Source of the DNA: Polyangiales bacterium
GTDB taxonomy: Bacteria > Myxococcota_A > Polyangia > Polyangiales > Ga0077539
NCBI GenBank assembly: GCA_046351535.1
Contig: JAXLYG010000005.1
Span: forward strand, 357,334-421,333
Reading direction: 5' to 3'
Length of the DNA stretch: 64,000 nucleotides
Below, piece by piece: positions 30,342-42,831 of this stretch. The notes below the pieces were generated by a model that did no database searches, was not told the origin of the DNA, and was given only the letters and a program-made list of their open reading frames with translations. The stretch's first letter is position 1; each line of letters begins with the position of its first letter. Position numbers and translations under genes: made by a program.

Positions 30342-31973
30342 TCACGCCCCGCGGAGCCTCTTGCGGTCGACCTTGCCGCGGTCGTTCTTGGGGAGCTCGC
30401 TGCGGAAGGTCACGGCGCGGGGGTACTTGTGCTTCGCGAGGCGGCTCTTGGCGAAGTCCTGGATGTCTCGCGCGAGGTCGTCTCCGGCGGTGAATCCGTC
30501 GCGGACGACGACGTGCGCGAGCGTGCGCATGAGGCCCTCCTCTTCGACGCCGACGACGGCCACCTCGGCGATCGCGGGGTGCGACAGCAGGCAGTCTTCG
30601 ACCTCGAGGAGCGACACCCAGAGGCCCGAGACCTTGAGCAGGTCGTCGGCGCGTCCCGCGAACCAGAGGTACCCGTCGGCGTCGAGGCGAAAGAGGTCGC
30701 TCGTGCAGCACCAGCGGCCGTGAAAGGTCTGCCAGCTCTTCTCGCGGTCGCCGTGATACCCGAGGGCGACGCTGTCACCCGCGACCCAGAGCGTGCCCAC
30801 CTCGCCGGGCGCGACGGGCTCGGCGCCGGGCTCCGTCGCGTCGCGCGGGAGCACCTTCACGGTGTAGCCGTCGACCACGCGGCCGAGGGAGCCGGGCTTG
30901 ATGTCTCCCGGTCGGTTGGTGACGTAGATGTGAAACATCTCCGCCGAGCCGATGCCGTCGTACACGTCGACGCCGAAGCGCTCGGTCCATCGCGAGAGCA
31001 GCGTCGGGGGGAGCGCCTCGCCCGCCGAGAGGCAGAAGCGAACGCTCGACACGTCGAGGCCCGCAGCGCCGCTCGCACGCGCCGTCGCGTCGTGCTCGAG
31101 GAGCTTGCCGATCATCGTCGGGACGTTGGTGAGCACCGTCGGTCGGTAGCGCGTGATGGCCTCGGTGAGCGAGGCCACGGTGGGGCGCTCGGAGAACATC
31201 CCCACGGAGGCGCCGACCCTGAACGGGAACATGAGGTTGGTGCCCGTGGCGTAGCCGAAGAAGAGCCTCGGGACGCTCACGCAGATGTCTCCGCGGCGGT
31301 ATCCCACGGTGCCGATCGCGTAGACCTCGGTGTTGAACGCGAAGTCGCGGTGCGTGTGAATCGCCGCCTTGGAGCGCCCCGTGGAGCCCGAGGTGAAGAG
31401 CCACACGGCCGGGTCGTCGCGGCGCGTGGGGAGGGGCTTCTCGCGCTCGGGCGAGGCCGTCGCGATGACGCGCGTGAGCGACTCGACGCGGGGCGCGCCG
31501 CCCGTGGCGGGGAGCGCGACGAGGGCCTCGGGGTCTTCGCCCGTGGCGGTGTCGGCGGTGACGAGCACGGCGCGGAGCCACGGAGAGCGCTCGATGGGGT
31601 CGCGCAGCGACTCGACGACGCGGCGCACGGTGACGAGGCACGACGCGCGCGTGTATTCGAGGAGGTACTCGAGGTCGTGCGTGGGCGCGTCGGGGTTGCC
31701 CATCGCGACGACGGCGCCGGCCTTCAAGACGCCGAAGAAGGTCCACGCGAAGGGGGGCAGGTCGGGGAGCACGATGAGGACGCGCTCCTCCGCGCGCACG
31801 CCGCGGGCGACGAGGGCCGAGGCGAGGGCCGCGGTGCGGCGCGCGACGTCGTCGAAGGTGTACGTGAGCGCCCCGTAGCGCAGCGCGACCTCGCCGCCGA
31901 GGCCGTCTGCGATGCGGTCGAAGAGGAAGTAGTCCGCGAGGTTGAACACGTCGGGGAAGGTCACGCTGTGCAC
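30342..31973 (-). CDS. AMP-dependent acyl-CoA ligase (benzoate-CoA ligase family-like)
   Basis: AMP-binding motif LFTSGSTGRSKAAIHTHRD, GEVGTLWVAGDSVALGY, C-terminal GKVDRKRLR. Confidence 0.8.
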   Translation of the reverse strand: MHSVTFPDVFNLADYFLFDRIADGLGGEVALRYGALTYTFDDVARRTAALASALVARGVRAEERVLIVLPDLPPFAWTFFGVLKAGAVVAMGNPDAPTHDLEYLLEYTRASCLVTVRRVVESLRDPIERSPWLRAVLVTADTATGEDPEALVALPATGGAPRVESLTRVIATASPEREKPLPTRRDDPAVWLFTSGSTGRSKAAIHTHRDFAFNTEVYAIGTVGYRRGDICVSVPRLFFGYATGTNLMFPFRVGASVGMFSERPTVASLTEAITRYRPTVLTNVPTMIGKLLEHDATARASGAAGLDVSSVRFCLSAGEALPPTLLSRWTERFGVDVYDGIGSAEMFHIYVTNRPGDIKPGSLGRVVDGYTVKVLPRDATEPGAEPVAPGEVGTLWVAGDSVALGYHGDREKSWQTFHGRWCCTSDLFRLDADGYLWFAGRADDLLKVSGLWVSLLEVEDCLLSHPAIAEVAVVGVEEEGLMRTLAHVVVRDGFTAGDDLARDIQDFAKSRLAKHKYPRAVTFRSELPKNDRGKVDRKRLRGA

Positions 31974-32037
31974 ATCGGCCTCGGTGGTGTGGGTGGAGAG
32001 ACGCTGGACCGTGGTGGGTGCGCCCTGCGAAGCGCGC

Positions 32038-33221
32038 TCAGGTCTTCGCGGCGTGCTCCGCGAGGAGCTGCGTCGCGATGACGAGCCGCTGGATCTCGGT
32101 GGTGCCCTCGTAGATGCGCAGCGCGCGCACCTCGCGGTAGAGCCGCTCGACGGCGTTGCCGCGCACGACGCCCGTTCCCCCGTGGAGCTGGAGCGCGCGG
32201 TCGATGATGCGCTGCGCGGCCTCCGTCGCGTACATCTTGCCCATGGCGGCTTCGAGCGAGACGCGGGGCGCGCCGCCGTCCTTCGCGTGGGCGGCGCGGT
32301 AGACGAGCAGCCGCGCGGCGTCGAGCTCCGTGGCCATCTCCGCGAGGTACGCCTGCGTCGACTGGAACTCCGCGAGCGCCTTGCCGAACTGCCTCCGCGA
32401 GGTCACCCGCGAGAGGGCCTCGTCGAGCGCCCTGCGGGCCATGCCGAGGGCCGCGGCGCCGACGGTGCTGCGGAACACGTCGAGCGTCGACATCGCGATC
32501 TTGAAGCCCGCGCCGACCTCTCCGAGGAGGCGATCGCCCGCGAGGCGGCACCCTTCGAAACGGATCGTCCCGAGGGGGTGATCGGCCATCATCGGGAGCT
32601 CGCCCGCGAAGACGAAGCCGGGGTCGTCGGGGCGCACGATGAAGGCCGTGATCCCGCGGCGTCCGAGCGACGGGTCGGCGTTCGCGAAGACCACGTAGTG
32701 ACCGGCGATCCCCGCGTTGGAGATGAAGGTCTTGGCGCCGTCGAGGACCCAACCGTCGCCGTCGCGGCGGGCCGTGGTGCGCATCGAAGACACGTCGCTC
32801 CCGGCCTCCTCCTCGGTGATCGCGAAGGCCGCGAGCGAGGTGCCGTCGGCCACCGCGGGGAGGAAGGTCTTCTTCTGCGCCGCCGTGCCCGCGAGCACGA
32901 TGGGGTAGCTCCCGAGGCCCTGCATCGCGAAGGTGGTGTCCGCGAGGCCGCTCGCCCACGCGAGGGTCTCGCGCACGAGGCACACCGCGCGCACGTCGAT
33001 GCCGTCGGGCTCACGCGCGGGGAGCCCGCCCACCGACGCGGGGACGCACGCCCGCAAGAGGCCCTTCTCCGCCAGAAGCGCCGCGAGCGCGCGGGGATCG
33101 TGCGACTCGACCTCGGGCGAGAGCGCCACGGCGCGCGCCACCCCGGCGATGGTCGCGTGGGAGGCATCGAAGAAGAACCCGAGGTCGTCGGTGCTGAGCC
33201 CGCAGCGTCGGCGCGCGGTCA
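32038..33221 (-). CDS. Acyl-CoA dehydrogenase
   Basis: ACAD C-terminal signature [16 protein letters not shown]/CoA-binding middle region. GTG start overlapping the hydratase stop. Confidence 0.85.
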
Positions 33222-34022
33222 CGGGGCGCCTCGGAACTTCGGCGCGCGCTTCGCGACGATGGCGTCGTAGGCCTCGCGAAAATCGGGGTGCTGCATGCAG
33301 ATGGCCTGCGCCTGCGCCTCGGCCTCGATGGCCTCTTCGAGCGACATCGTGTGCTCGGCCTCGATCATCTGCTTGGTCATCGTGTGCGCGAAGGCGGGGC
33401 CCTCGGAGAGCTTCTTCGCGAACTCCGTCGCCGCGGAGACCACCTCGGCGCGGGGCACGACGCGGTTCGCGAGGCCGATGCGGTACGCCTCCTGCGCGTC
33501 GACGAGCTCGCCCGAGAAGAGCAGCTCCGACGCGCGGCCGAGGCCCACGACGCGGGGCAGGAGGTAGGCCGCGCCCATGTCCGCGCCGCACAGGCCCACC
33601 TTCGGGAAGATGAACCCGAAGCGCGCGTCGTCGGCGGCGATGCGCACGTCGCACGCGAGCGCGATGACGGCCCCGGCGCCCACGGCCACGCCGTTGACCG
33701 CGGCGATCACGGGCCTGCGCACGCGACGGATGTTCCGGATGAGCGCGCCGGTGATGCGGGTGAAGTCGACGAGGCCCTGCATGTCGCGCTCGAAGAGCCG
33801 CGCGATGATGTCGTGGCGGTCGCCGCCGGAGCAGAACCCGCGGCCCGCGCCCGTGATGACCAGCGCGCGCACCTCGGGGTGCTTCTCGATGGCGACGAAG
33901 AACTCGCCGAGCTCGACGTAGCTGTCGAAGGTGAGGGAGTTCAGGCGCTCGGGGCGGTCGAGGGTGATCGTGCCGACGCCTGCGACGAGTTCGAAGCGAA
34001 AGTTCTCGGGCGAGAGGGTCAC
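33219..34022 (-). CDS. Enoyl-CoA hydratase/isomerase (crotonase family)
   Basis: [31 protein letters not shown] crotonase oxyanion-hole region. GTG start overlaps the RidA stop. Confidence 0.85.
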
Positions 34023-34423
34023 CGGGGCTGCTCCGTGATGTGTGCGATGGCTTCGATCTCGACCTTCGCCTCGCGCTCGACGAGGCCCGTCACGCCCACC
34101 AGCGCCATCGCCGGAAAGTGCTTGCCGAGCCGCGCGCGCCACGCCGCGCCGACGCCGCGGAGGTTCGAACGGTAGGCGTCGAGATCCGTGACATAGACCG
34201 TCATCTTCACGACGTCGGAGGCGGCGCCGCCCGCGGCCTCGACGATCGTCACGACGTTGGCGAGCGCCTGGTCGAACTGCGCGACGAAGTCGTCGGAGAC
34301 GAAGCGCTGCGACGCGTCCCAGCCGATCTGACCGGCGACGTAGACCGTGCGGCCGCCTTCGCAGACGACGCCGTTCGCATAGCCCTTCGCGGGCGCCCAC
34401 CCCTCGGGTTGAACCGTCTTCAC
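34019..34423 (-). CDS. RidA/YjgF-family reactive intermediate deaminase
   Basis: RidA-like pattern [20 protein letters not shown]...VYVAGQIG...[13 protein letters not shown] start overlaps the SDR stop. Confidence 0.7.
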
Positions 34424-35217
34424 GCCGTCTGTCCTCCGTCGATCGCGATGCACTGACCGTGGATGCCCCGCGCCTCATGCGGCAGGAGCGACCACACCGC
34501 GTGGGCGACCTCGTCGGCGGTCATCAGCCGCCGCTGCGGCGAGAGCGCTTCGAGGGCGGCGCGGGCGTCGTCGGCGCTGCGCTTCGTCGTGGCCGAGATG
34601 CGCTCGACGGAGCGCGCGGCCATGTCGGTGTCGACGAAGCCCGGGCACACGGCGTTGATCGTGACGCCCGAGCGCGCGTACTCGACGGCGAGCGAGCGCG
34701 TGAGGCCCACGAGGGCGTGCTTGCTCGCGCAGTACGCGGCCGTGTAGGCGTAGCCGCGGAGGCCGGCGTTGGAGGCGACGTTGACCACGCGGCCCCAGCG
34801 GCGCTTCGCCATCGCGGGGATGAGCCTGCGCGAGAGGCGAAAGGGGGCCGTGACGTTGAGGGCCATGGCGCGCTCCCACGCGGCGTCGTCGGTGCGCTCG
34901 AAGGGGAGCGACTCGGCGAGGCCCGCGTTGTTGACGAGCACCTCGATGGGGCCGAGCGAGTTCTCGACGAGGGAGACGGCGGCTTCGAGGGCGCTCGCGT
35001 CGGTCACGTCGCACTGCGCGGCGAATCCATCGAGCTCCTTCGCGACGCGCGTGAGCTCGTCGAGGGAGCGACCCATGACCGCGACGCGCAGGCCCTCGCG
35101 CGCGAGGCGCCGTGCCACCGCCTCGCCGATGCCTCGCCCGCCGCCGGTGACCAGCGCGACCCTACCGTGAAGGCTCTCCACGCGGGTCGTGTACACGCAG
35201 CGCGCGCGCTCCCGCAA
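34420..35217 (-). CDS. Short-chain dehydrogenase/reductase (3-hydroxyacyl-CoA dehydrogenase-like)
   Basis: VALVTGGGRGIGEAVA Rossmann motif. NNAG. Catalytic YTAAYCASK (YxxxK). Confidence 0.8.
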   Translation of the reverse strand: MRERARCVYTTRVESLHGRVALVTGGGRGIGEAVARRLAREGLRVAVMGRSLDELTRVAKELDGFAAQCDVTDASALEAAVSLVENSLGPIEVLVNNAGLAESLPFERTDDAAWERAMALNVTAPFRLSRRLIPAMAKRRWGRVVNVASNAGLRGYAYTAAYCASKHALVGLTRSLAVEYARSGVTINAVCPGFVDTDMAARSVERISATTKRSADDARAALEALSPQRRLMTADEVAHAVWSLLPHEARGIHGQCIAIDGGQTA

Positions 35218-35308
35218 GGGGATGCCGCGCCGTCGTTCGGGGCCGCGGGCGAGAATTCGCCGTCAGGGGGCGGCGGTGATTGGTGGTAGGGTCGCGGCCG
35301 AGGCCTCG

Positions 35309-36202
35309 ATGCGATACCGGGTCACCTACGCGCGCCGCGACGATCTGCGCAAGGACCTCGAAGCGCAGCTCTCGCGCGGCGGGATCTTCGTGAACGTCCC
35401 TCCGCCCGACGACCTGTCCTACGGCGTGCGGCACCGCCTCGACCTCGTGGCCCCCGACGGGACGGTGGCCAAGAGCGACGGCGAGGTGCTCGCCGCGGTG
35501 CCGGGGGTGGGCATCGCGCTGTCGGTTCCGCCCGAGGCCGTCGCGATGCTTCGGGCCGCGCTCGATCGGCTCACCTTCGACAAGGGAGACGGCGCTCCGC
35601 CGCGTCACGAGCGTATCGATGACGCCGCGCGCCTGACGCCTCCCTCGGTGGCGCCGGTGTCTGCTTCGAAGCCCACGACCGCGACGGGATCGAGCTCGCC
35701 CGCGCAGCCCGCGACCCCGCAGCCCGCGACCCCGCAGCCTGCGACCGCGCAGCCCGCGACCGCGCAGCCCGCGACCGCGCAGCCCGCGACGCGTGTGCAG
35801 CCGACGGCCGACGCGCAGTCGTGGGACTCGCTCTCGCCCGCGGACAAGATGCGCCTCGCGCAGCACGGGGACCGCGACGAGCGCGGCGCCGCGCTGAGAG
35901 ACAAGAACCGCACGCTGCACCCGCACGTGCTGAAGAACCCTCGCATCACCATCGAGGAGGTTGTGGCAATCGCGCGCAATCCGCAGAGCGCGCCGGACCT
36001 CCTCAAGCTCGTCGCCGAGCGCTCGGAGTGGATGGGGCGCTCGCAGATCGCCGAGGCGCTGGCGAGAAACCCCAAGTCACCGAACGACGTGGGGATCCGC
36101 GCGCTCGCGGGGTGCTCCGCGGAGGCGCTGAGGCAGATGGCCAAGGGTACGGGCGCGCCACCGCATGTCATCCAGGCCGCACGCAAGCGCGTTCTCGGCT
36201 AG
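35309..36202 (+). CDS. Hypothetical protein with PilZ-like N-terminal domain, Pro-rich PATPQ repeat linker and helical C-terminal domain
   Basis: N-terminal MRYRVTYARRDDLRKDLEAQLSRGGIFVNVPPPDDLSYG resembles myxobacterial PilZ-type domains. Six 15-bp tandem repeats encode PATPQ/PATAQ. Confidence 0.45.
   Translation: MRYRVTYARRDDLRKDLEAQLSRGGIFVNVPPPDDLSYGVRHRLDLVAPDGTVAKSDGEVLAAVPGVGIALSVPPEAVAMLRAALDRLTFDKGDGAPPRHERIDDAARLTPPSVAPVSASKPTTATGSSSPAQPATPQPATPQPATAQPATAQPATAQPATRVQPTADAQSWDSLSPADKMRLAQHGDRDERGAALRDKNRTLHPHVLKNPRITIEEVVAIARNPQSAPDLLKLVAERSEWMGRSQIAEALARNPKSPNDVGIRALAGCSAEALRQMAKGTGAPPHVIQAARKRVLG
35701..35790 (+). repeat. 15-bp tandem repeat x6 (cagcccgcgaccccg variants) inside the CDS, encoding a (PATxQ)n linker
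   Basis: Direct inspection of the sequence. Confidence 0.7.
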
Positions 36203-36366
36203 ACGCGGAGCGCGTGTCGCGCTGAAAAGAAAGGTGTTTCACGCGAGCGCTCGCGCGCTCGAAACCTTGTTCTTCGACCGAAGTTCGGAGAGAGTCGTGG
36301 TCATCAAGATCCAAGGCTCGCCCACCGCGATCGTCGCGGGCTCACGCGGCGTGCCTCGCAAGGTCG

Positions 36367-37629
36367 ATGAGTCCGAAGAAGAAGAAACCATCGCGCGCGA
36401 CGCGGTCACCGTCGACACCTGCGCGTCCCGCCCCTGAGGCTCCGGTCGCCCCTCCGACCTCTCGGAGTTTCGGGTTCGTGGTGCTCTTCGCGCTCCTCGC
36501 GGCGGTCTATTTTCTGGGTCGCGCGCGGGCTCCCGAGAGCCGCCGCGCGCCGCGCCTCGACACGTCGCCCAACCGACCTTCGGTGCACATCTCCGAGGGC
36601 GCCGCGACGCCGGGCGCGCTCGTCGAGCGGGTCATCCCGCTGCCGCTCCCGGCGGGCGCGTTCACCGCCGAGGACTGCCTCCGCGACGTCGAGGCGTGGC
36701 GATTCGCGGGGCGCGACCTCGACGGCGTCGACGCCTTTCTGCGATGGGCCGGCGTGTCGTCGCAGCAGGTGGCGCGCGTGCGCGCGGTGGCCCGTTGCGA
36801 GGCCGACGGCTGCACCGTGGTGCCCGACATCGAGCTGCTCGGATCGCTGAGCCGCGAGGCGCGCGGCGCGGTCTACCGCGAGCTCGCGAAGTACTCGGAG
36901 AACCGGCTCCAGATGTTCCCCGCGTACCGGCCCGTGGAGCTCGGGGCGTGGGGGGCGATCGCGAGCGTGAGCCCGCGGGTGAGGGCGCTCCTCGACGCGG
37001 GCACCTGGATCGACGGCGACCACTACGCCTTCTCCGACCTCCCGTGGGTGTGCTCCGCGGTGTCGACCGACGCCGAGCGCGTCGAGGCGCTCACCACCCT
37101 CCGCACGCGCTACGGCATCGACGCCTCGGTGCGCGTGCCCGACGGCGACATCGAGCCGCTCGTGCGCTACTGGTCGACGGGGAGCGACCCCGACGAGATC
37201 CGCCGCACGCTCCTCGACGCGCGCCGCCGCGACGGACTCGCGCCCGTGGCGGACCTCCTGCCCGCGATGGCGCGCGCCCGCATCAACCGCTACCCCCGCG
37301 CCACGGACCCCGAGTACGACTGCTTCTGGAGCGCGATGAACTTCTTCGAGGGCCCCACGCCGTCGAGCCAGCCCGTCGTGCCGCAGAGCGTGGCGCCGCT
37401 GCTCCGAGACGCCTACGTCGAAGTCCCCGCGGAGTCCGCGCGCCTCGGCGACGTGGTGGCCTTCCGCGCGGTCGACGGGCGCGTCGCCCACGCGTGCAAC
37501 TTCATCGCGCGCGAGCTGCATTTCTCCAAGAACGGACGCACCCACCGCCGTCCCTGGTCGATCGTCACCGAGGCGGACCTCGCGCGCGAGTACCCCCACA
37601 CCACGCGCCACGTCTATCGCCTGCGCTGA
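36367..37629 (+). CDS. Membrane-anchored protein with C-terminal NlpC/P60-like (papain-fold) cysteine peptidase/amidase domain
   Basis: Single N-terminal TM (FGFVVLFALLAAVYFLG). C-terminal YDCFWSAMNFF (Cys nucleophile context like YDCSGLV) and GDVVAFRAVDGRVAHACNFIARELHFS (compare NlpC/P60 GDLVFF...HVGIYIG...IHAS). Confidence 0.5.
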   Translation: MSPKKKKPSRATRSPSTPARPAPEAPVAPPTSRSFGFVVLFALLAAVYFLGRARAPESRRAPRLDTSPNRPSVHISEGAATPGALVERVIPLPLPAGAFTAEDCLRDVEAWRFAGRDLDGVDAFLRWAGVSSQQVARVRAVARCEADGCTVVPDIELLGSLSREARGAVYRELAKYSENRLQMFPAYRPVELGAWGAIASVSPRVRALLDAGTWIDGDHYAFSDLPWVCSAVSTDAERVEALTTLRTRYGIDASVRVPDGDIEPLVRYWSTGSDPDEIRRTLLDARRRDGLAPVADLLPAMARARINRYPRATDPEYDCFWSAMNFFEGPTPSSQPVVPQSVAPLLRDAYVEVPAESARLGDVVAFRAVDGRVAHACNFIARELHFSKNGRTHRRPWSIVTEADLAREYPHTTRHVYRLR

Positions 37630-37727
37630 CCTCCGCGCCGCGCGCGTGCCGATGGGGGTTGAAAGCACGGCGGACCTCGCGGTACCCGAAGAGGTGTCTA
37701 CGCGACCACGCGCCGCACAGGGAGCCG

Positions 37728-38591
37728 ATGAGCCCGTTCAAAACGTTGAGCCAGGACTTCGAGGCGTTTCGCAAGGGACTCGAGGCGACCGAGGCCCCGC
37801 CTGAGGGGATCCTTCAGCGTCAACGCGTCCGCGAGCACCTCGCGAGCGCGTGGCAGCCCGCCCAGGAGTCGGTGATCGGCTCGTACCGCCGCGGGACGAA
37901 CCTCCGCCCCACGCGCGAGCTCGACTACCTCTTCGTGCTCGGGGCGCGGCACCAGCCGTACCTCACGGCGGACCCGGCGAAGGTGCTCGACGACGTGGCC
38001 GCGCGCGTCGGGGTCACCTGGTATCAGGCCCGGACGCGCAAGGCGCCGCACGGCCTCGCGGTGACCTTCCACGACATGACCGTGGTGCTGATCCCGGCGT
38101 TTCCGAAGCACGGCGGCGGGGTGTTCATCCCCGACACGGAGCTCCGTCGCTGGCTGCCGACGGACCCCGACGCCCACGCGCGCGTCGTGGCCGAGGCGAA
38201 CAAGCGGACCCACAACCTCGCCGCCGCGGTGGTGCGCGCGCTCAAGTGCTGGCGCCGCGCGCGGCAGGTGCCCGTGCGGTCGTTTCACCTCGAGACCATG
38301 GCCCTGCGCGCGCTCACGGCGGCGCCCGACGACCTGCTCGCGGGCTGCATCGCGGCGCTCGACGGCGTCGCCGCGGCGGTGAAGGTGCGCTGCGCGCCGC
38401 CGTGCCCCGTCGGCGACGACGTGGACATGTACCTCGCGCTCGACCCGGCCCGCCGCGCCGCCATCGCGACCGCCGCGGGCGACGCCGCCGACGCGCTGCG
38501 TGACGCCGCCGCGCACGACGCGGAGCGCTCGAACGAGGCCGCGTGCGCCGCGGCGCGTGCGGTGTTCGGAGCGCCCTTTCCCGAGGGTTGA
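37728..38591 (+). CDS. cGAS/DncV-like (SMODS-type) nucleotidyltransferase, Pol-beta superfamily
   Basis: GSYRRGTNLRPTRELDYLFVL matches the GS...[DE]h[DE] NTase core (compare CD-NTase GSYARGT...SDIDLLV). Putative third acidic strand VTFHDMTVVLIPAF resembles OAS/cGAS FDVLPAF. GGGAG RBS upstream. About 288 aa. Confidence 0.5.
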   Translation: MSPFKTLSQDFEAFRKGLEATEAPPEGILQRQRVREHLASAWQPAQESVIGSYRRGTNLRPTRELDYLFVLGARHQPYLTADPAKVLDDVAARVGVTWYQARTRKAPHGLAVTFHDMTVVLIPAFPKHGGGVFIPDTELRRWLPTDPDAHARVVAEANKRTHNLAAAVVRALKCWRRARQVPVRSFHLETMALRALTAAPDDLLAGCIAALDGVAAAVKVRCAPPCPVGDDVDMYLALDPARRAAIATAAGDAADALRDAAAHDAERSNEAACAAARAVFGAPFPEG

Positions 38592-38600
38592 GCGAAGGCG

Positions 38601-39659
38601 TTGTCAATCGCCCCGGGGGCGTCGTATAGCGCCGCCGCGATGAGCCAGACCGACACCCAGGGACCGTCCGCGGAGCTCCCTCGCGAGCTCCTCGTGCGCA
38701 TGCACGAACTGATGCTCAAGGGCCGCGTGCTCGAGGAGCGCCTCATCACGATGTGGCGCCAGGGCGACGGCTACTTCTGGATCGGCGGTCCGGGCGAGGA
38801 GGCGTTCAACGTTCCCCTCGGGTTGCAGGTCGACAAGGGCCGCGGGCTCGACCACGATTTTCTGCACCTGCACTACCGCTCGAGCGCGACGCTCCTCGCG
38901 ATGGGGGCCGACCCCGTCGACTCGCTGCGGCAGATGAAGAACACCGCGACGGACCCCTACTCGGGCGGTCGCAACTTCGTCGGGCACTACTCCTGGCGCG
39001 CGATGAACGTGGTCCCCGTGTCGTCGCCCATCGAGGTGCAGTTCTCGATGGCGCCCGGCACCGCGATGGCCCAGAAGCGCCACGGCGGCAGGGCCATCAC
39101 CATCGTGCAGGGCGGCGACGCGGGCACCGCCGAGGCCGACTTCTACGCCGGACTCCTCTGGAGCTCGCGCAAGGGCCACGAGCTCCCCGTGCTGCTCATC
39201 GTGACCAACAACCAGTGGGGCATCTCGACGGCCTACGACGGGCAGCACCCGGCCACGACGCGCATCGCCGACCTGGGCCGCGCCTTCGGGATGCCCTCCG
39301 AGGTGGTCGACGGCAACGACCCCGAGGTCGCCTGGCACGCCATCGCGAAGGCCATGGAGTACGTGCGCACCGAGCGGAAGCCCTACCTCATCGAGGCGAT
39401 GGTGTCGCGCCTTCGCGGGCACTCGTCGGCCACGGGCGCGGCCTTCATCAAGAGCGAGACCGACTGCCTGGCGCGCTTCGAAGAGCGCCTCGAGGCGCGG
39501 GGCTACCTCACGCGGGCGCACATGGACGAGATGCGCGCGCGCTTCACCGCGGAGCTGCTCGAGGCTTCGAAGCGCGTGATCGCCGAGGCCCAGCCCGACC
39601 CGTCGACCATCTGGAACAACGTGTTCGCGACGAGGAACCTCGTCGGAGAGGGCCGCTGA
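38601..39659 (+). CDS. Thiamine-diphosphate-dependent 2-oxoacid (pyruvate/acetoin) dehydrogenase E1 alpha subunit
   Basis: TPP-binding region GDAGTAEADFYAGLLWSSRKGHELPVLLIVTNNQWGIS. The ORF-track start is TTG at 38601; an ATG at 38640 (MSQTDT) is an alternative start. Confidence 0.85.
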   Translation: MSIAPGASYSAAAMSQTDTQGPSAELPRELLVRMHELMLKGRVLEERLITMWRQGDGYFWIGGPGEEAFNVPLGLQVDKGRGLDHDFLHLHYRSSATLLAMGADPVDSLRQMKNTATDPYSGGRNFVGHYSWRAMNVVPVSSPIEVQFSMAPGTAMAQKRHGGRAITIVQGGDAGTAEADFYAGLLWSSRKGHELPVLLIVTNNQWGISTAYDGQHPATTRIADLGRAFGMPSEVVDGNDPEVAWHAIAKAMEYVRTERKPYLIEAMVSRLRGHSSATGAAFIKSETDCLARFEERLEARGYLTRAHMDEMRARFTAELLEASKRVIAEAQPDPSTIWNNVFATRNLVGEGR

Positions 39660-39660
39660 C

Positions 39661-40722
39661 ATGACCACCATCGCGCAGGCGATCAGGCTCGCGCTCCACG
39701 TCGGTGAGGAGCGTCACGGCGTCACGGACATCTTCGGCGAGGACGTGGGCGCGCCCCTCGGCGGCGTCTTCACCTGCACGCAGGGCCTCCGCACGGCGTG
39801 GAACTCGCCGCTCGACGAGCGCGGGATCGTGGGCGCCGCGATCGGCCTCGCGCTCGCGGGGCAGAAGCCCGTGTGCGAGGTGCAGTTCAGCGACTACTCC
39901 TACAACACCATCGAACTCCTCAAGCTCGCGGGCGGAATGCACTGGTCGTCGAACGGCGACTGGAACTGCCCCATGGTGCTCATGACCCCCACGGGCGCGG
40001 GCATTCGCGGGAGCCTCTACCACTCGCACAGCTTCGACGCGACGGCGACGCACCTGCCGGGCTGGCGCGTGGTGATGCCGTCGAACCCGCGCGACGCGTA
40101 CGGGCTCATGCTCACGGCGATCCGCGAGCCGAACCCCGTGCTCTTTCTCGCGCCCAAGGCGCTCATGCGCTACCGCGGCGAGGAGGGCGAGGACGTTCCG
40201 GGCGTTCCTGATCAGAAGGCGCTCGACGACCTCATCAACAAGCCCGTGACCGGCGAGCAGTCGCAGTGGGCCGCGCGCTGGCCCGAGACGCCCGACCTGT
40301 TCATCCCGTTCGGCGAGGCCCGCACGGTGCGCCGCGGGCGCGACGTGACCGTGGTCACCTACGGCCGCCACGTCATCATCGCGCGCGACGCCTGCGCCGA
40401 GCTCGCGAAGGAGGGCGTCGAGGCCGAGCTCCTCGACCTGCGCTCGCTGGCTCCCTACGACTGGCCCGCGATCGTCGAGAGCGTGAAGCGCACGCACCGC
40501 GTGGTCTTCGTGAACGAGGAGCTCGACGTGACCAACTTCGGCGAGCACCTCATCCGCCGCGTGGTGACCGAGCTCTTCTACGAGCTCTACGCGCCGCCGC
40601 GTCTCGTGGCGGGCGCGATGGTCCCGGGCATCGGCCTGTCGGACAACCTCGAGCGCGCGAGCGTGCCGCAGCGCGACGACCTCGTGCGCGCGATCCGCGA
40701 GACCGCGAAGCACCAGCCGTAG
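39661..40722 (+). CDS. 2-oxoacid dehydrogenase E1 beta subunit (transketolase-like)
   Basis: Pyrimidine-binding domain motifs (DIFGEDVG...GVFTCTQGL) and C-terminal transketolase domain. Starts 2 nt after the E1 alpha stop. Confidence 0.9.
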   Translation: MTTIAQAIRLALHVGEERHGVTDIFGEDVGAPLGGVFTCTQGLRTAWNSPLDERGIVGAAIGLALAGQKPVCEVQFSDYSYNTIELLKLAGGMHWSSNGDWNCPMVLMTPTGAGIRGSLYHSHSFDATATHLPGWRVVMPSNPRDAYGLMLTAIREPNPVLFLAPKALMRYRGEEGEDVPGVPDQKALDDLINKPVTGEQSQWAARWPETPDLFIPFGEARTVRRGRDVTVVTYGRHVIIARDACAELAKEGVEAELLDLRSLAPYDWPAIVESVKRTHRVVFVNEELDVTNFGEHLIRRVVTELFYELYAPPRLVAGAMVPGIGLSDNLERASVPQRDDLVRAIRETAKHQP

Positions 40723-40727
40723 CGCGC

Positions 40728-40815
40728 TTTCATCGGGGCCGGTGAACGCCATCATCGGGCCCGGTGAACGCCATCATCGGCCCCGGTGAACGCCATCATC
40801 GGGCGTCGGTGAACC
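40728..40815. repeat. Four tandem copies of a 22-bp unit (catcatcgggcccggtgaacgc) between convergent genes
   Basis: Direct inspection: ggccggtgaacgccatcatcgggcccggtgaacgccatcatcggccccggtgaacgccatcatcgggcgtcggtgaacc. Confidence 0.7.
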
Positions 40816-40819
40816 GGCG

Positions 40820-41311
40820 CTACTGGTTGCGCACGCGATCGGCGGGGACCCACTCCTCGCGGCCGTCGAGGAAGCGCACGCACACGAGCGCGCCGTCGCG
40901 GGCGAGGGGCGTCGCGGGGTACGACGTCCCGTCGGGCGCGTAGACGCGCACGAGCGTGCTCGGCGGAGGCGCCTGGAACGCGGCCATCTGCTGCTGCTGC
41001 TGCGGACGCGGGAGCGTCGCCATGAAGCGCGCCGTGTGGTCGGTGCCGCCCGTGAGGTTCTGCAAGATCGCGATGGGCGTGAAGATCAGCCCGAAGGGAA
41101 AGCCCCACCACCCGAAGAAGAGCGACAGGAGGAGGTAAGGCGCCGCCGCGCTCATCGCGCTCTCGCCGGGCCGCACGAAGACGATCGCCGAGCGACGGAA
41201 CGTGACCACCAGCACTGAGATGCAGTAGCTGAACTCCACGACGCGGCCGCCGCGCTGGAGCTCGTAGGCGAACTCCTGCGGCGAGAGGTTCTCGGCCCCT
41301 TTGATCTCCAT
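40820..41311 (-). CDS. Hypothetical small membrane protein (two TM segments)
   Basis: ATG start. Hydrophobic stretches LLLSLFFGWWGFPFGLIFTPIAIL. No domain recognised. Confidence 0.4.
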   Translation of the reverse strand: MEIKGAENLSPQEFAYELQRGGRVVEFSYCISVLVVTFRRSAIVFVRPGESAMSAAAPYLLLSLFFGWWGFPFGLIFTPIAILQNLTGGTDHTARFMATLPRPQQQQQMAAFQAPPPSTLVRVYAPDGTSYPATPLARDGALVCVRFLDGREEWVPADRVRNQ

Positions 41312-41377
41312 GCTCAGCCGCTATCATGGCGCCCGACGCGTCGCAACGACGCCCCGACGCGAGGTCCCACAGCATCG

Positions 41378-42831
41378 ATGAGCGCGAGCACCTACGACGA
41401 CCTCCCCTACGAAGACTACTGCTTCGCGCGCACCCACCCCGAGCACCTCTTCGCCGTGTCGGCGCTCTGCGCGCGGAGCGCCCCGCACTTCACCCGCTGC
41501 CGCGTGCTCGAGCTCGGCTGCGCGCGCGGCGCGAACCTCATCCCGATGGCGCTCGACCTGCCCGCGAGCGAGTTCGTCGGCGTCGACCTCTCGGCGCGGC
41601 AGATCGACGAGGGGCGCGCGCGCGTCGACGCCCTCGGCCTCGCGAACATCAAGCTGCGCGAGGGCTCCATCGTCGACGTCGACGAGGCCGACGGGACCTT
41701 CGACTACGTCATCTGTCACGGCGTGTACTCGTGGGTGCCCGCCGACGTGCGCGATGCGATCCTGCGCGTGTGCCGAGCGCGCCTGCGACCCGACGGCGTC
41801 GCCTACGTGAGCTTCAACGCCCTGCCCGGGTGGAACGCCGCGCGGACCGTGCGGGAGTTCCTCGCGATGCACGTTCCTTCAACGGGGAGCGCGTCGCAGC
41901 GGCTCGCGCGCGCGAGGGATGCCCTCGCGGTGCTCGCCGAGGCGGTTCAAAGCGCGAGACCCCGTCGGCCCGCTGGATGCGCGCCGAGCTCACCGCCATC
42001 GCCGCGGCCGACGACAGCTACGTCTTTCACGAGTACCTCGAGGCCGTGAACGACGCGGCCTACCTCACGGACTTCGTCGCCGCCGCGCGCGCGCATCGCC
42101 TCGCGCACCTCGCCGACGCCGACCTCACCGTGGCCGCGCCGGGCCTCCGCCCCACCGAGGGGGACCCCATCGCGCTCGCGCAGGCTGTCGACTTCGCCGT
42201 CGATCGACGCTTCCGCGCGGCGCTGCTCGTTCACGAAGAGACCGCGGCCGAGCGGGCCGACCCCGCGTGCCTCGCGAGGCTCCTGCTCTCGACGCGCGCG
42301 GAGTTCGACGGCGCCGCCGTGAAGCTCGACGGGCGCGCCGTCACGCTGCAAGACCCGTGGCTCACCGCCGCGCTCGTCGCGCTCGTCGAGGCCGAGCGCC
42401 GACCGACCTCGTACTCGACGCTCGTCGCCGTCGCGGGCGCGCGCCTGGGCCTCGACGCGAAGCGCTCGCTCCACCTCGCCGCGTCGCGCTGCGGCGCCGT
42501 GCTTGAGCTCGTGTACGAGGGGCTCTTCGAGATCCACGGGGGCGAGGCCCGCTACGCCTCCGACGCGGGGATCAGACCCGTGGGCTCGCGCCTCGCGCGG
42601 TCTCAGTGCGCCGAGGGCGAGACCGTGACGACGCTGCGGCACACGCGCCTCGACGTGCCCGACTTCGAACGCGCCACGCTCGCGCTCCTCGACGGGACGC
42701 GCGACCGCGGGGCGCTCGTCGACGCGCTCTGGACGCACCCTGAAGGGCAGGGCCTGCACCGCGGCGAGCTCGCGGGGCGCGTCGAAGACGCCCTCGACTG
42801 GCTCGCGCGAAACGCGCTCCTCACGCGCTGA
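41378..42831 (+). pseudogene. Class I SAM methyltransferase with C-terminal methyltransferase-regulatory domain; apparent frameshift near 41948-41966
   Basis: MTase motif I VLELGCARGANL and DYVICHGVYSWVP in frame 2 (41378..42049). The regulatory-domain-like continuation (ARWMRAELTAIAAADDSYVFHEYLE...) is in the frame of ORF 41326..42831. A single +/-1 nt shift joins them. Confidence 0.6.

Follow-up and report, generated by a model that had tools for sequence, protein, structure and literature searches.

Does a strong match to the signalling enzyme of an anti-phage system mean that the system itself is present? Nucleotidyltransferases of the cGAS/DncV-like family (CD-NTases) are normally taken as markers of the anti-phage signalling system that relies on cyclic oligonucleotides (CBASS), and the cyclase models of PADLOC strongly flag one such protein, hereafter the NTase, in a 64,000-nucleotide stretch of DNA from a Polyangiales bacterium (GenBank assembly GCA_046351535.1, contig JAXLYG010000005.1, positions 357,334 to 421,333; the whole stretch, with a G+C content of about 72%, is here called the window, and positions are counted from its first letter). 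The NTase gene is the last of three same-strand genes, for proteins of 297 aa, 420 aa and the NTase itself, that the original prediction placed at 35309-38591 and that are all present there. In this article, I will argue that the product is a genuine CD-NTase by fold, that its clade lost a catalytic carboxylate in a single event, that the gene is vertically inherited under purifying selection, and that no CBASS partner stands beside it; on balance it is probably a domesticated orphan, the descendant of a CdnD-type cyclase, now non-catalytic or non-canonical, that keeps the nucleotide-binding fold and is expressed alone. The gene and the active-site codons on which the argument turns are listed here.

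37728-38591, + strand: NTase gene, 287 aa plus stop codon; homologue of the CdnD-like CD-NTases (SMODS)
37878-37883, + strand: G51-S52 of the NTase
37917-37919, + strand: E64 of the NTase
37923-37925, + strand: D66 of the NTase
38085-38087, + strand: Val120 of the NTase

The assignment of this protein to the cGAS/DncV-like, SMODS nucleotidyltransferases was borne out by Pfam, by PADLOC and by an AlphaFold 2 (AF2) model compared with solved structures by Foldseek. The gene itself was correctly called, and only the length given for its product (288 aa) needs amending, to 287 aa plus the stop codon; an identical 287-aa protein is recorded in a Polyangiales metagenome-assembled genome (MAG; database copy P0001). 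Against Pfam SMODS (PF18144) the NTase scores 50.2 bits, above the curated gathering score of 26.5, and it matches the PADLOC cyclase model PDLC00823 over its full length (6e-47, residues 6-286), while the score against the NCBIfam equivalog NF041117 (CBASS_cyclase_b), 127.8 bits, is under the cut-off of 200. The nearest solved sequences are those of Pseudomonas aeruginosa (Pa) CdnD (1e-17). The AF2 model, built from 20 homologues, has a mean predicted local distance difference test score (pLDDT) of 91.1 and a predicted template modelling score (pTM) of 0.89, and shows a Pol-beta-like catalytic lobe and a helical C-lobe as in solved CD-NTases; its best Foldseek matches are Pa CdnD chains (6p8u/6p82/6p8j; TM 0.87, 26-27% identity), followed by other CdnD (CdnD02), CdnC, CdnB, CdnG, DncV and CdnE structures. 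The product of 37728-38591 is a genuine bacterial cGAS/CdnD-like SMODS/CD-NTase fold.

Turning to the active site, the GS...E-L-D core motif, GSYRRGTNLRPTRELDYLFVL, was found at residues 51-71 as described, and the NTase retains G51-S52 of the GS loop as well as the metal-binding pair E64-x-D66. The downstream hDhhhP strand that had also been claimed is not there: the strand expected to hold the third carboxylate reads M117-T-V-V-L-I-P-A-F, with Val120 in the column of the catalytic Asp, and no acidic residue occurs on the strand between 117 and 126. In Pol-beta-fold NTases such as cGAS, OAS and DncV, the third carboxylate coordinates the catalytic metal, and little or no nucleotidyl transfer is therefore to be expected once it is lost. 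D116, which lies on the same face of the strand, was considered as a compensating acid and rejected, as it is unconserved. The original prediction had tied its signalling hypothesis to the positional conservation of the catalytic residues, and on this point the finding went against signalling, Asp having given way to Val120 across the whole clade.

How unusual this replacement is can be judged from a census of 161 aligned sequences, made up of the query, Pa CdnD, hits from a word index and the top profile matches among 1.84 billion representatives. The third catalytic column holds Asp in 136 and Glu in 5, making 141 of the 161 acidic (Pa CdnD included), and Val is confined to the clade to which the query belongs, in 14 sequences if the query and the identical P0001 are included; a further clade member, P0010, has Thr. 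Positions conserved in canonical relatives also differ in this clade (N176R, D224P and W276A), and there is sporadic decay within it, S52 being Ala in P0005 and P0007 and E64 being Ala in P0008. What the clade and the active enzymes still have in common are the motifs IPD, W142, TDP..H150, K173.W175 and E189. Outside the V120 clade, the only other close relative that has no acid in the third column is P0033 (GS / E-x-D / Cys), whose Cys may be an independent loss.

In a neighbour-joining tree the V120 clade is monophyletic, and all 12 of the 12 nearest sister sequences are canonical (GS / DxD / D-or-E), so that the third Asp was lost in a single derived event. The clade is restricted to MAGs of Polyangiales/Myxococcota, shows no patchy, mobile or defence-island distribution, and its loci have stable synteny among metabolic genes; the NTase is a vertically inherited copy in an uncultured Polyangiales lineage. 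Full-length intact open reading frames (ORFs) persist in at least 14 lineages, down to 52% identity, and 62 columns of the clade alignment are invariant. Between pairs at 91-92% identity the NTase has a ratio of nonsynonymous to synonymous substitution rates (dN/dS) of 0.19-0.20, compared with 0.09-0.12 for the adjacent genes encoding the alpha and beta subunits of a 2-oxoacid dehydrogenase E1 component; distant pairs (0.4-0.6) were set aside, as their dS is compressed or saturated at a third-position G+C content above 90%. The gene is under purifying selection.

The closest well-characterized enzyme, P. aeruginosa ATCC27853 CdnD (PDB 6P82, 6P8J, 6P8U), belongs to a type III CBASS with HORMA1/2, TRIP13/Pch2 and NucC. 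It resembles the NTase in its two-lobed fold, similar length, GS loop and first two acids, and in the shared motifs IPD, W..TDP..H, K.W and F(H/L)(L/I)E, but its third-acid strand reads VSVDAVPAF where the window protein has TVVLIPAF, and it sits in a HORMA/TRIP13/nuclease-effector operon, unlike the NTase, which has none of these and is chromosomal and vertically inherited. Nucleotide binding can outlast changes to the active site, as a D62N/D64N variant of Pa CdnD still binds ATP with a Kd of about 10 uM (bioRxiv 10.1101/694695).

Is there, around this gene, anything with which a cyclase could work? The neighbourhood comparison set the window against 23 loci with clade members and 69 E1 loci without the NTase (related loci are labelled L and related proteins P), and the contexts examined were the 64-kb window and the 7-17-kb flanks of the relatives. 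The other features of the locus are as follows.

35309-36202, + strand: gene for the 297-aa protein, a Myxococcota family
36367-37629, + strand: gene for the 420-aa protein, with an NlpC/P60-fold C-terminus
37659-37688, + strand: promoter-like element of the NTase gene (phylogenetic footprint)
38601-38630, + strand: promoter-like element of the E1-alpha/beta genes (phylogenetic footprint)
38640-39659, + strand: 2-oxoacid dehydrogenase E1 alpha, 339 aa from the ATG at 38640
39661-40722, + strand: 2-oxoacid dehydrogenase E1 beta, 353 aa

In both upstream neighbours and in the downstream genes, scans with PADLOC, Pfam and NCBIfam found no effector, Cap2/3 or HORMA/TRIP13, and tblastn of type III (from L094) and type I CBASS components of related loci against the whole window was empty at BLAST-level sensitivity, in agreement with the original prediction, which saw no canonical CBASS effector and no Cap2/Cap3 gene here. 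Nor does any of at least 10 related loci have an effector or ancillary gene beside the NTase. The metagenomic CBASS cyclases P0020 and P0016, canonical relatives that are about 28-32% identical along the whole length of the SMODS protein, differ from the NTase in having a complete catalytic triad, compact effector/ancillary operons and mobile or defence contexts: P0020 lies in a type III CBASS operon with AAA/Cap8/bacHORMA_2, and P0016 (L012, 6001-9375) in a CBASS operon of two tandem SMODS genes (SMODS, then SMODS-AGS_C) and, after them, an S_4TM effector, on an integrative element with ArdC, ParB and RES-Xre genes. On each of the system-level features of CBASS, namely an effector, ancillary genes and a mobile distribution, the window locus comes out negative.

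What does travel with the NTase depends on how far one looks. In relatives at 65-100% identity the NTase, E1-alpha and E1-beta genes are always adjacent, and the outer flanks are rearranged around this block (L001 and L020 versus the window). The two upstream neighbours are less faithful, the 420-aa gene surviving in L007 and L019 as a 194-aa piece that lacks the peptidase domain and being absent in L018, L001 and L020, and the 297-aa gene being absent in L001, L020 and all NTase relatives at 54-59% identity. Farther out, the NTase lies beside Aminotran_5 and a 1545-aa protein in L009 (about 59% identity) and beside Usp, VWA and TauE in L004, L021 and L022 (about 54%), and these four loci share nothing but the NTase with the window. 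Conversely, 69 of 69 loci with E1 alpha/beta orthologues at 52-78% identity carry no NTase upstream, and the adjacency of NTase and E1 is lineage-specific synteny.

The 420-aa protein was described as a membrane-anchored, NlpC/P60-like protein, and this description holds, since it has a hydrophobic N-terminal helix and the fold of its C-terminal domain (about residues 300-420) is confirmed in a model of pLDDT 87 as NlpC/P60, a papain-like alpha+beta domain with a Cys at a helix N-terminus and a His on a strand. Across 25 homologues Cys319 and His375 are invariant, likewise G361-D362 and K388-N389-G390, and the third catalytic residue is probably Asn389/Asp383, in an F(S/T)KNG motif. No Pfam family, NLPC_P60 included, matches the protein at E<=1, and a sequence-profile search of the family against the PDB gave no match. 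Distant family members begin with classical signal peptides, which places the domain outside the cytoplasm, where it cannot read a cytoplasmic nucleotide, and the 420-aa protein, judged by these sequence features, is probably a signal-anchored, exported cell-wall hydrolase. As a neighbour it varies, and it stands outside any NTase system. Compared with MepS, CwlO, LytE, SagA and RipA, it differs in having no Pfam NLPC_P60 match and in its novel preceding domain of about 220 residues. This region (residues ~80-300, 36610-37270) is a confidently modelled mixed alpha/beta fold with no Pfam or PDB sequence match, and residues ~95-235 of it persist as the stand-alone 194-aa gene of L007 and L019.

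The first of the three genes had been called PilZ-like, a label that was not confirmed. Its 297-aa family, with 128 homologues in Polyangiales, Kofleriaceae and Myxococcaceae, has a much broader distribution than the NTase clade, and combines an N-terminal beta domain, a linker of PATAQ repeats and a C-terminal helical repeat of the LRV type (LRV_2 matches the C-terminal half of 10 of 31 members). Pfam PilZ matches none of the 31, and TIGR02266, which is described as PilZ-related, matches the N-terminal domain only weakly, in 14 of the 31 with a best E of 4e-4 and in the window protein with an E of 0.065 (13.4 bits, where the cut-off is 68.7). The cyclic di-GMP motifs RxxxR and [DN]xSxxG are degenerate, the consensus having R4 without R8, and Q-x-x-[RK]-G-G in which the Ser is unconserved; a sequence-profile search of the family against the PDB was uninformative. 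The 297-aa protein is not tied to the NTase. Its linker (PATAQ/PATPQ) is encoded by a 15-nt tandem repeat at 35700-35790 (6.1 copies, 94% matches) and varies widely in length among the homologues.

One further piece of sequence does accompany the NTase gene, and its assignment, like that of the second element described below, is a consensus and footprint argument. The hexamer TTGAAA (37659-37664) is followed, after an 18-nt spacer, by TACCCG (37683-37688) inside an invariant GGTAC[CG]CG block, 39 nt upstream of an ATG that has a GGGAG ribosome-binding site. This promoter-like element occurs once in the window, where chance would give 0.01, and is kept in 10 of 10 aligned loci, at 54-100% protein identity and behind four different upstream genes. 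Since it is conserved in every context, the conserved unit consists of the promoter-like element plus the NTase gene. The -10-like hexamer does not have the usual final T, and the element might serve an alternative sigma factor or a regulator as a binding site. A sigma-70 scan, which accepts only -10 hexamers whose sixth base is T, found no promoters, and the M. xanthus DdvS/CBASS paper offered no usable promoter consensus.

A second such element, belonging to the E1 genes, lies downstream and changes how the end of the NTase gene is read. The original prediction had the gene end only 9 nt before pdh E1 genes, an E1 start at the TTG of 38601 being implied; this TTG is the start of a -35 hexamer, TTGTCA (38601-38606), followed by an 18-nt spacer and TATAGC (38625-38630), then 9 nt to the E1-alpha ATG at 38640, leaving a gap of 48 nt after the NTase stop. 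The hexamers are identical and the spacer variable in all NTase-linked loci, and this sigma-70-like element occurs only once in the window, against 0 expected. In L007, L018, L019 and L024 a 1-nt indel brings a stop codon into the TTG frame, which marks 38601-38639 as non-coding; the gap of 9 nt is thus an artefact of ORF extension. Translational coupling between the NTase and E1-alpha was considered and rejected for the same reason, as four relatives have the TTG frame interrupted and the stretch is a conserved promoter-like element. E1 orthologues that have no NTase (L025-L028) carry TATAG[GC] 8-10 nt before the ATG, which points to a promoter belonging to the E1 genes. The layout suggests a leaderless or near-leaderless E1 mRNA and points to the NTase and E1 genes being separate transcription units rather than an operon fusion. 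In many E1-alpha orthologues of other lineages, a TA-rich hexamer (TATAGG, TAAGAC, TAAAGA) stands 7-10 nt before the start.

The label pdh also needs revision. E1 alpha matches Pfam E1_dh (1.9e-44) and E1 beta has the Transket_pyr and Transketolase_C domains, but both subunits lie far under the cut-offs of the pyruvate dehydrogenase (PDH) equivalogs in NCBIfam, alpha with 166 bits against 411 (PDH_E1_alph_x) and beta with 196 against 321. Their best PDB matches are branched-chain enzymes, 1um9 / 1qs0 for alpha and 1qs0_B, 2-oxoisovalerate dehydrogenase beta, for beta, and by these similarity scores the pair is classed as an E1 of the branched-chain 2-oxoacid dehydrogenase (BCKDH) type and not as a PDH equivalog. 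A dependence of E1 alpha/beta on the NTase is ruled out by the 69 orthologous loci without it.

With these results in hand, what is the NTase? The most literal answer, that the three genes form a CBASS-like module in which the NTase is the synthase, the PilZ-like protein the receptor and the membrane NlpC/P60 protein the effector, has in its favour that they lie adjacent on one strand in the window and in relatives at 84-100% identity, that the NlpC/P60 fold is real and that some weak similarity to TIGR02266 exists. It is nevertheless extremely improbable and largely refuted by the neighbourhood comparison, in which one or both neighbours are truncated or missing from several NTase loci; the wide 297-aa family has no PilZ motifs, the peptidase domain is exported, neither neighbour matches PADLOC, and the NTase has no catalytic Asp and its own promoter-like element. 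The minimal signalling module once entertained for this locus falls with it, and the fallback offered at the time, an orphan NTase, is what survives. An orphan may of course be tied to whatever lies downstream, and if it were a subunit of the BCKDH-like E1 or a regulator dedicated to it, such as a modulator of 2-oxoacid flux that senses nucleotides, this would account for an adjacency kept in every relative at 65-100% identity despite rearranged outer flanks, with no terminator found between the genes. I regard such a role as improbable, however, given the many E1 loci that do without the NTase, the NTase relatives at 54-59% identity that are not beside E1, and a spacer element, present in NTase-free orthologues too, that would make separate transcription units of the two. 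At the other extreme, loss of the partners and of one catalytic residue could mean that the gene is a decaying, functionless remnant of a former CBASS operon, a proposal to which I give scarcely any credence when the ORFs are intact in at least 14 lineages with 62 invariant columns, a dN/dS of about 0.2 and a conserved upstream element.

The harder choice lies between a silent and a working orphan. An active CD-NTase could use E64/D66 together with water or another residue and send a second messenger to a receptor encoded elsewhere, for housekeeping and not defence; the clade keeps G51 and D66 and, with few exceptions, S52 and E64, along with the motifs shared with active enzymes, and purifying selection and a promoter-like element of its own would be expected of such a gene. 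I consider this unlikely, since the sister sequences all have an acid in the third column, as do 141 of the 161 relatives, clade members that have lost S52 or E64 are hard to square with strict catalytic constraint, and no receptor gene is co-conserved in any context examined. The preferred reading, a domesticated and probably silent descendant of a CdnD-type cyclase, would run as follows. A type-III-CBASS-like (CdnD-type) ancestor would have kept its two-lobed fold, its GS loop and the E-x-D pair that binds metal and triphosphate, while shedding the third carboxylate (Asp to Val120) along with HORMA/TRIP13, Cap2/3 and the effector; the protein would still bind a nucleotide triphosphate with Mg2+, would make a cyclic oligonucleotide very poorly or no longer at all, and would serve as a pseudoenzyme, a non-catalytic nucleotide-binding or scaffolding protein, from its own transcription unit driven by the promoter-like element that travels with it. 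Several points weigh against this. The loss of catalysis is deduced from the sequence; D136 and E138 are conserved and are possible compensating carboxylates, D136 in canonical enzymes too; the conservation of G51, D66 and mostly S52 and E64 also fits a working enzyme with an altered metal site; and a receptor or effector could be encoded, unlinked, beyond the window and the 7-17-kb flanks that were viewed.

How far the preferred reading can be extended is a more tentative matter. By analogy, the NTase might be a bacterial counterpart of the 'dead' cGAS-fold proteins Mab21 and NF45-NF90, a CBASS cyclase captured by the chromosome of its host, shorn of its effector and of one catalytic carboxylate, and kept across divergence of tens of percent as a nucleotide-binding regulator with a promoter of its own, a scenario that I see as a possibility rather than as the likely outcome. 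MAB21L1/2 and the DZF domains of NF45/NF90 (PDB 4AT7/4AT8) have the same superfamily NTase fold with degenerate catalytic residues, and some eukaryotic non-catalytic cGAS/OAS-fold proteins still bind nucleotides. In these eukaryotic proteins, more of the active site is lost than in the window NTase, and the NF45/NF90 structures come at Foldseek ranks 42-49 for its model with a TM of about 0.5, which makes the likeness a functional analogy and no specific relationship. Nothing specific on bacterial CD-NTases that are inactive or orphan came out of a literature search. With one subclade neighbouring E1 alpha/beta and another Usp, metabolism and stress are the candidate fields, and a captured cyclase may act in central/branched-chain 2-oxoacid metabolism or in stress physiology.

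For those who count defence systems, the practical message is that a clear cyclase match can be a vertically inherited and probably catalytically silent orphan, which is a caveat for censuses of defence in Myxococcota. If the NTase is a functional pseudoenzyme, it would be an immune gene domesticated within bacteria, with Mab21 and NF90 as its animal parallels, and the V120 clade and its D-containing sisters would make a tractable pair with which to study roles of the CD-NTase fold without catalysis. If it is a captured cyclase, the shift of immune NTases to non-immune, non-catalytic roles would occur in bacteria too.

Finally, the wider surroundings deserve mention. No Rfam match to a riboswitch or structured RNA was found in 34000-42000 at E<=0.1. 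Directly upstream of the three genes, a run of catabolic genes on the - strand (30342-35217) encodes an AMP-dependent ligase, an acyl-CoA dehydrogenase, an enoyl-CoA hydratase, a RidA-like protein and a short-chain dehydrogenase/reductase (SDR), the RidA and SDR genes being syntenic in L007, L016 and L018, and this run underlines the metabolic, non-defence setting. Downstream of E1-beta, a predicted membrane protein of 163 aa without a family match (40820-41311, - strand) is kept at 93-98% identity in the closest relatives, L006 and L016. Beyond it, at 41378-42831, the gene for an S-adenosylmethionine-dependent methyltransferase with a Methyltransf_25 domain and a regulatory domain at the C-terminus is split over two frames near 41950, either a frameshift/pseudogene or an error of MAG assembly, and its orthologue in L006 is intact at 484 aa.

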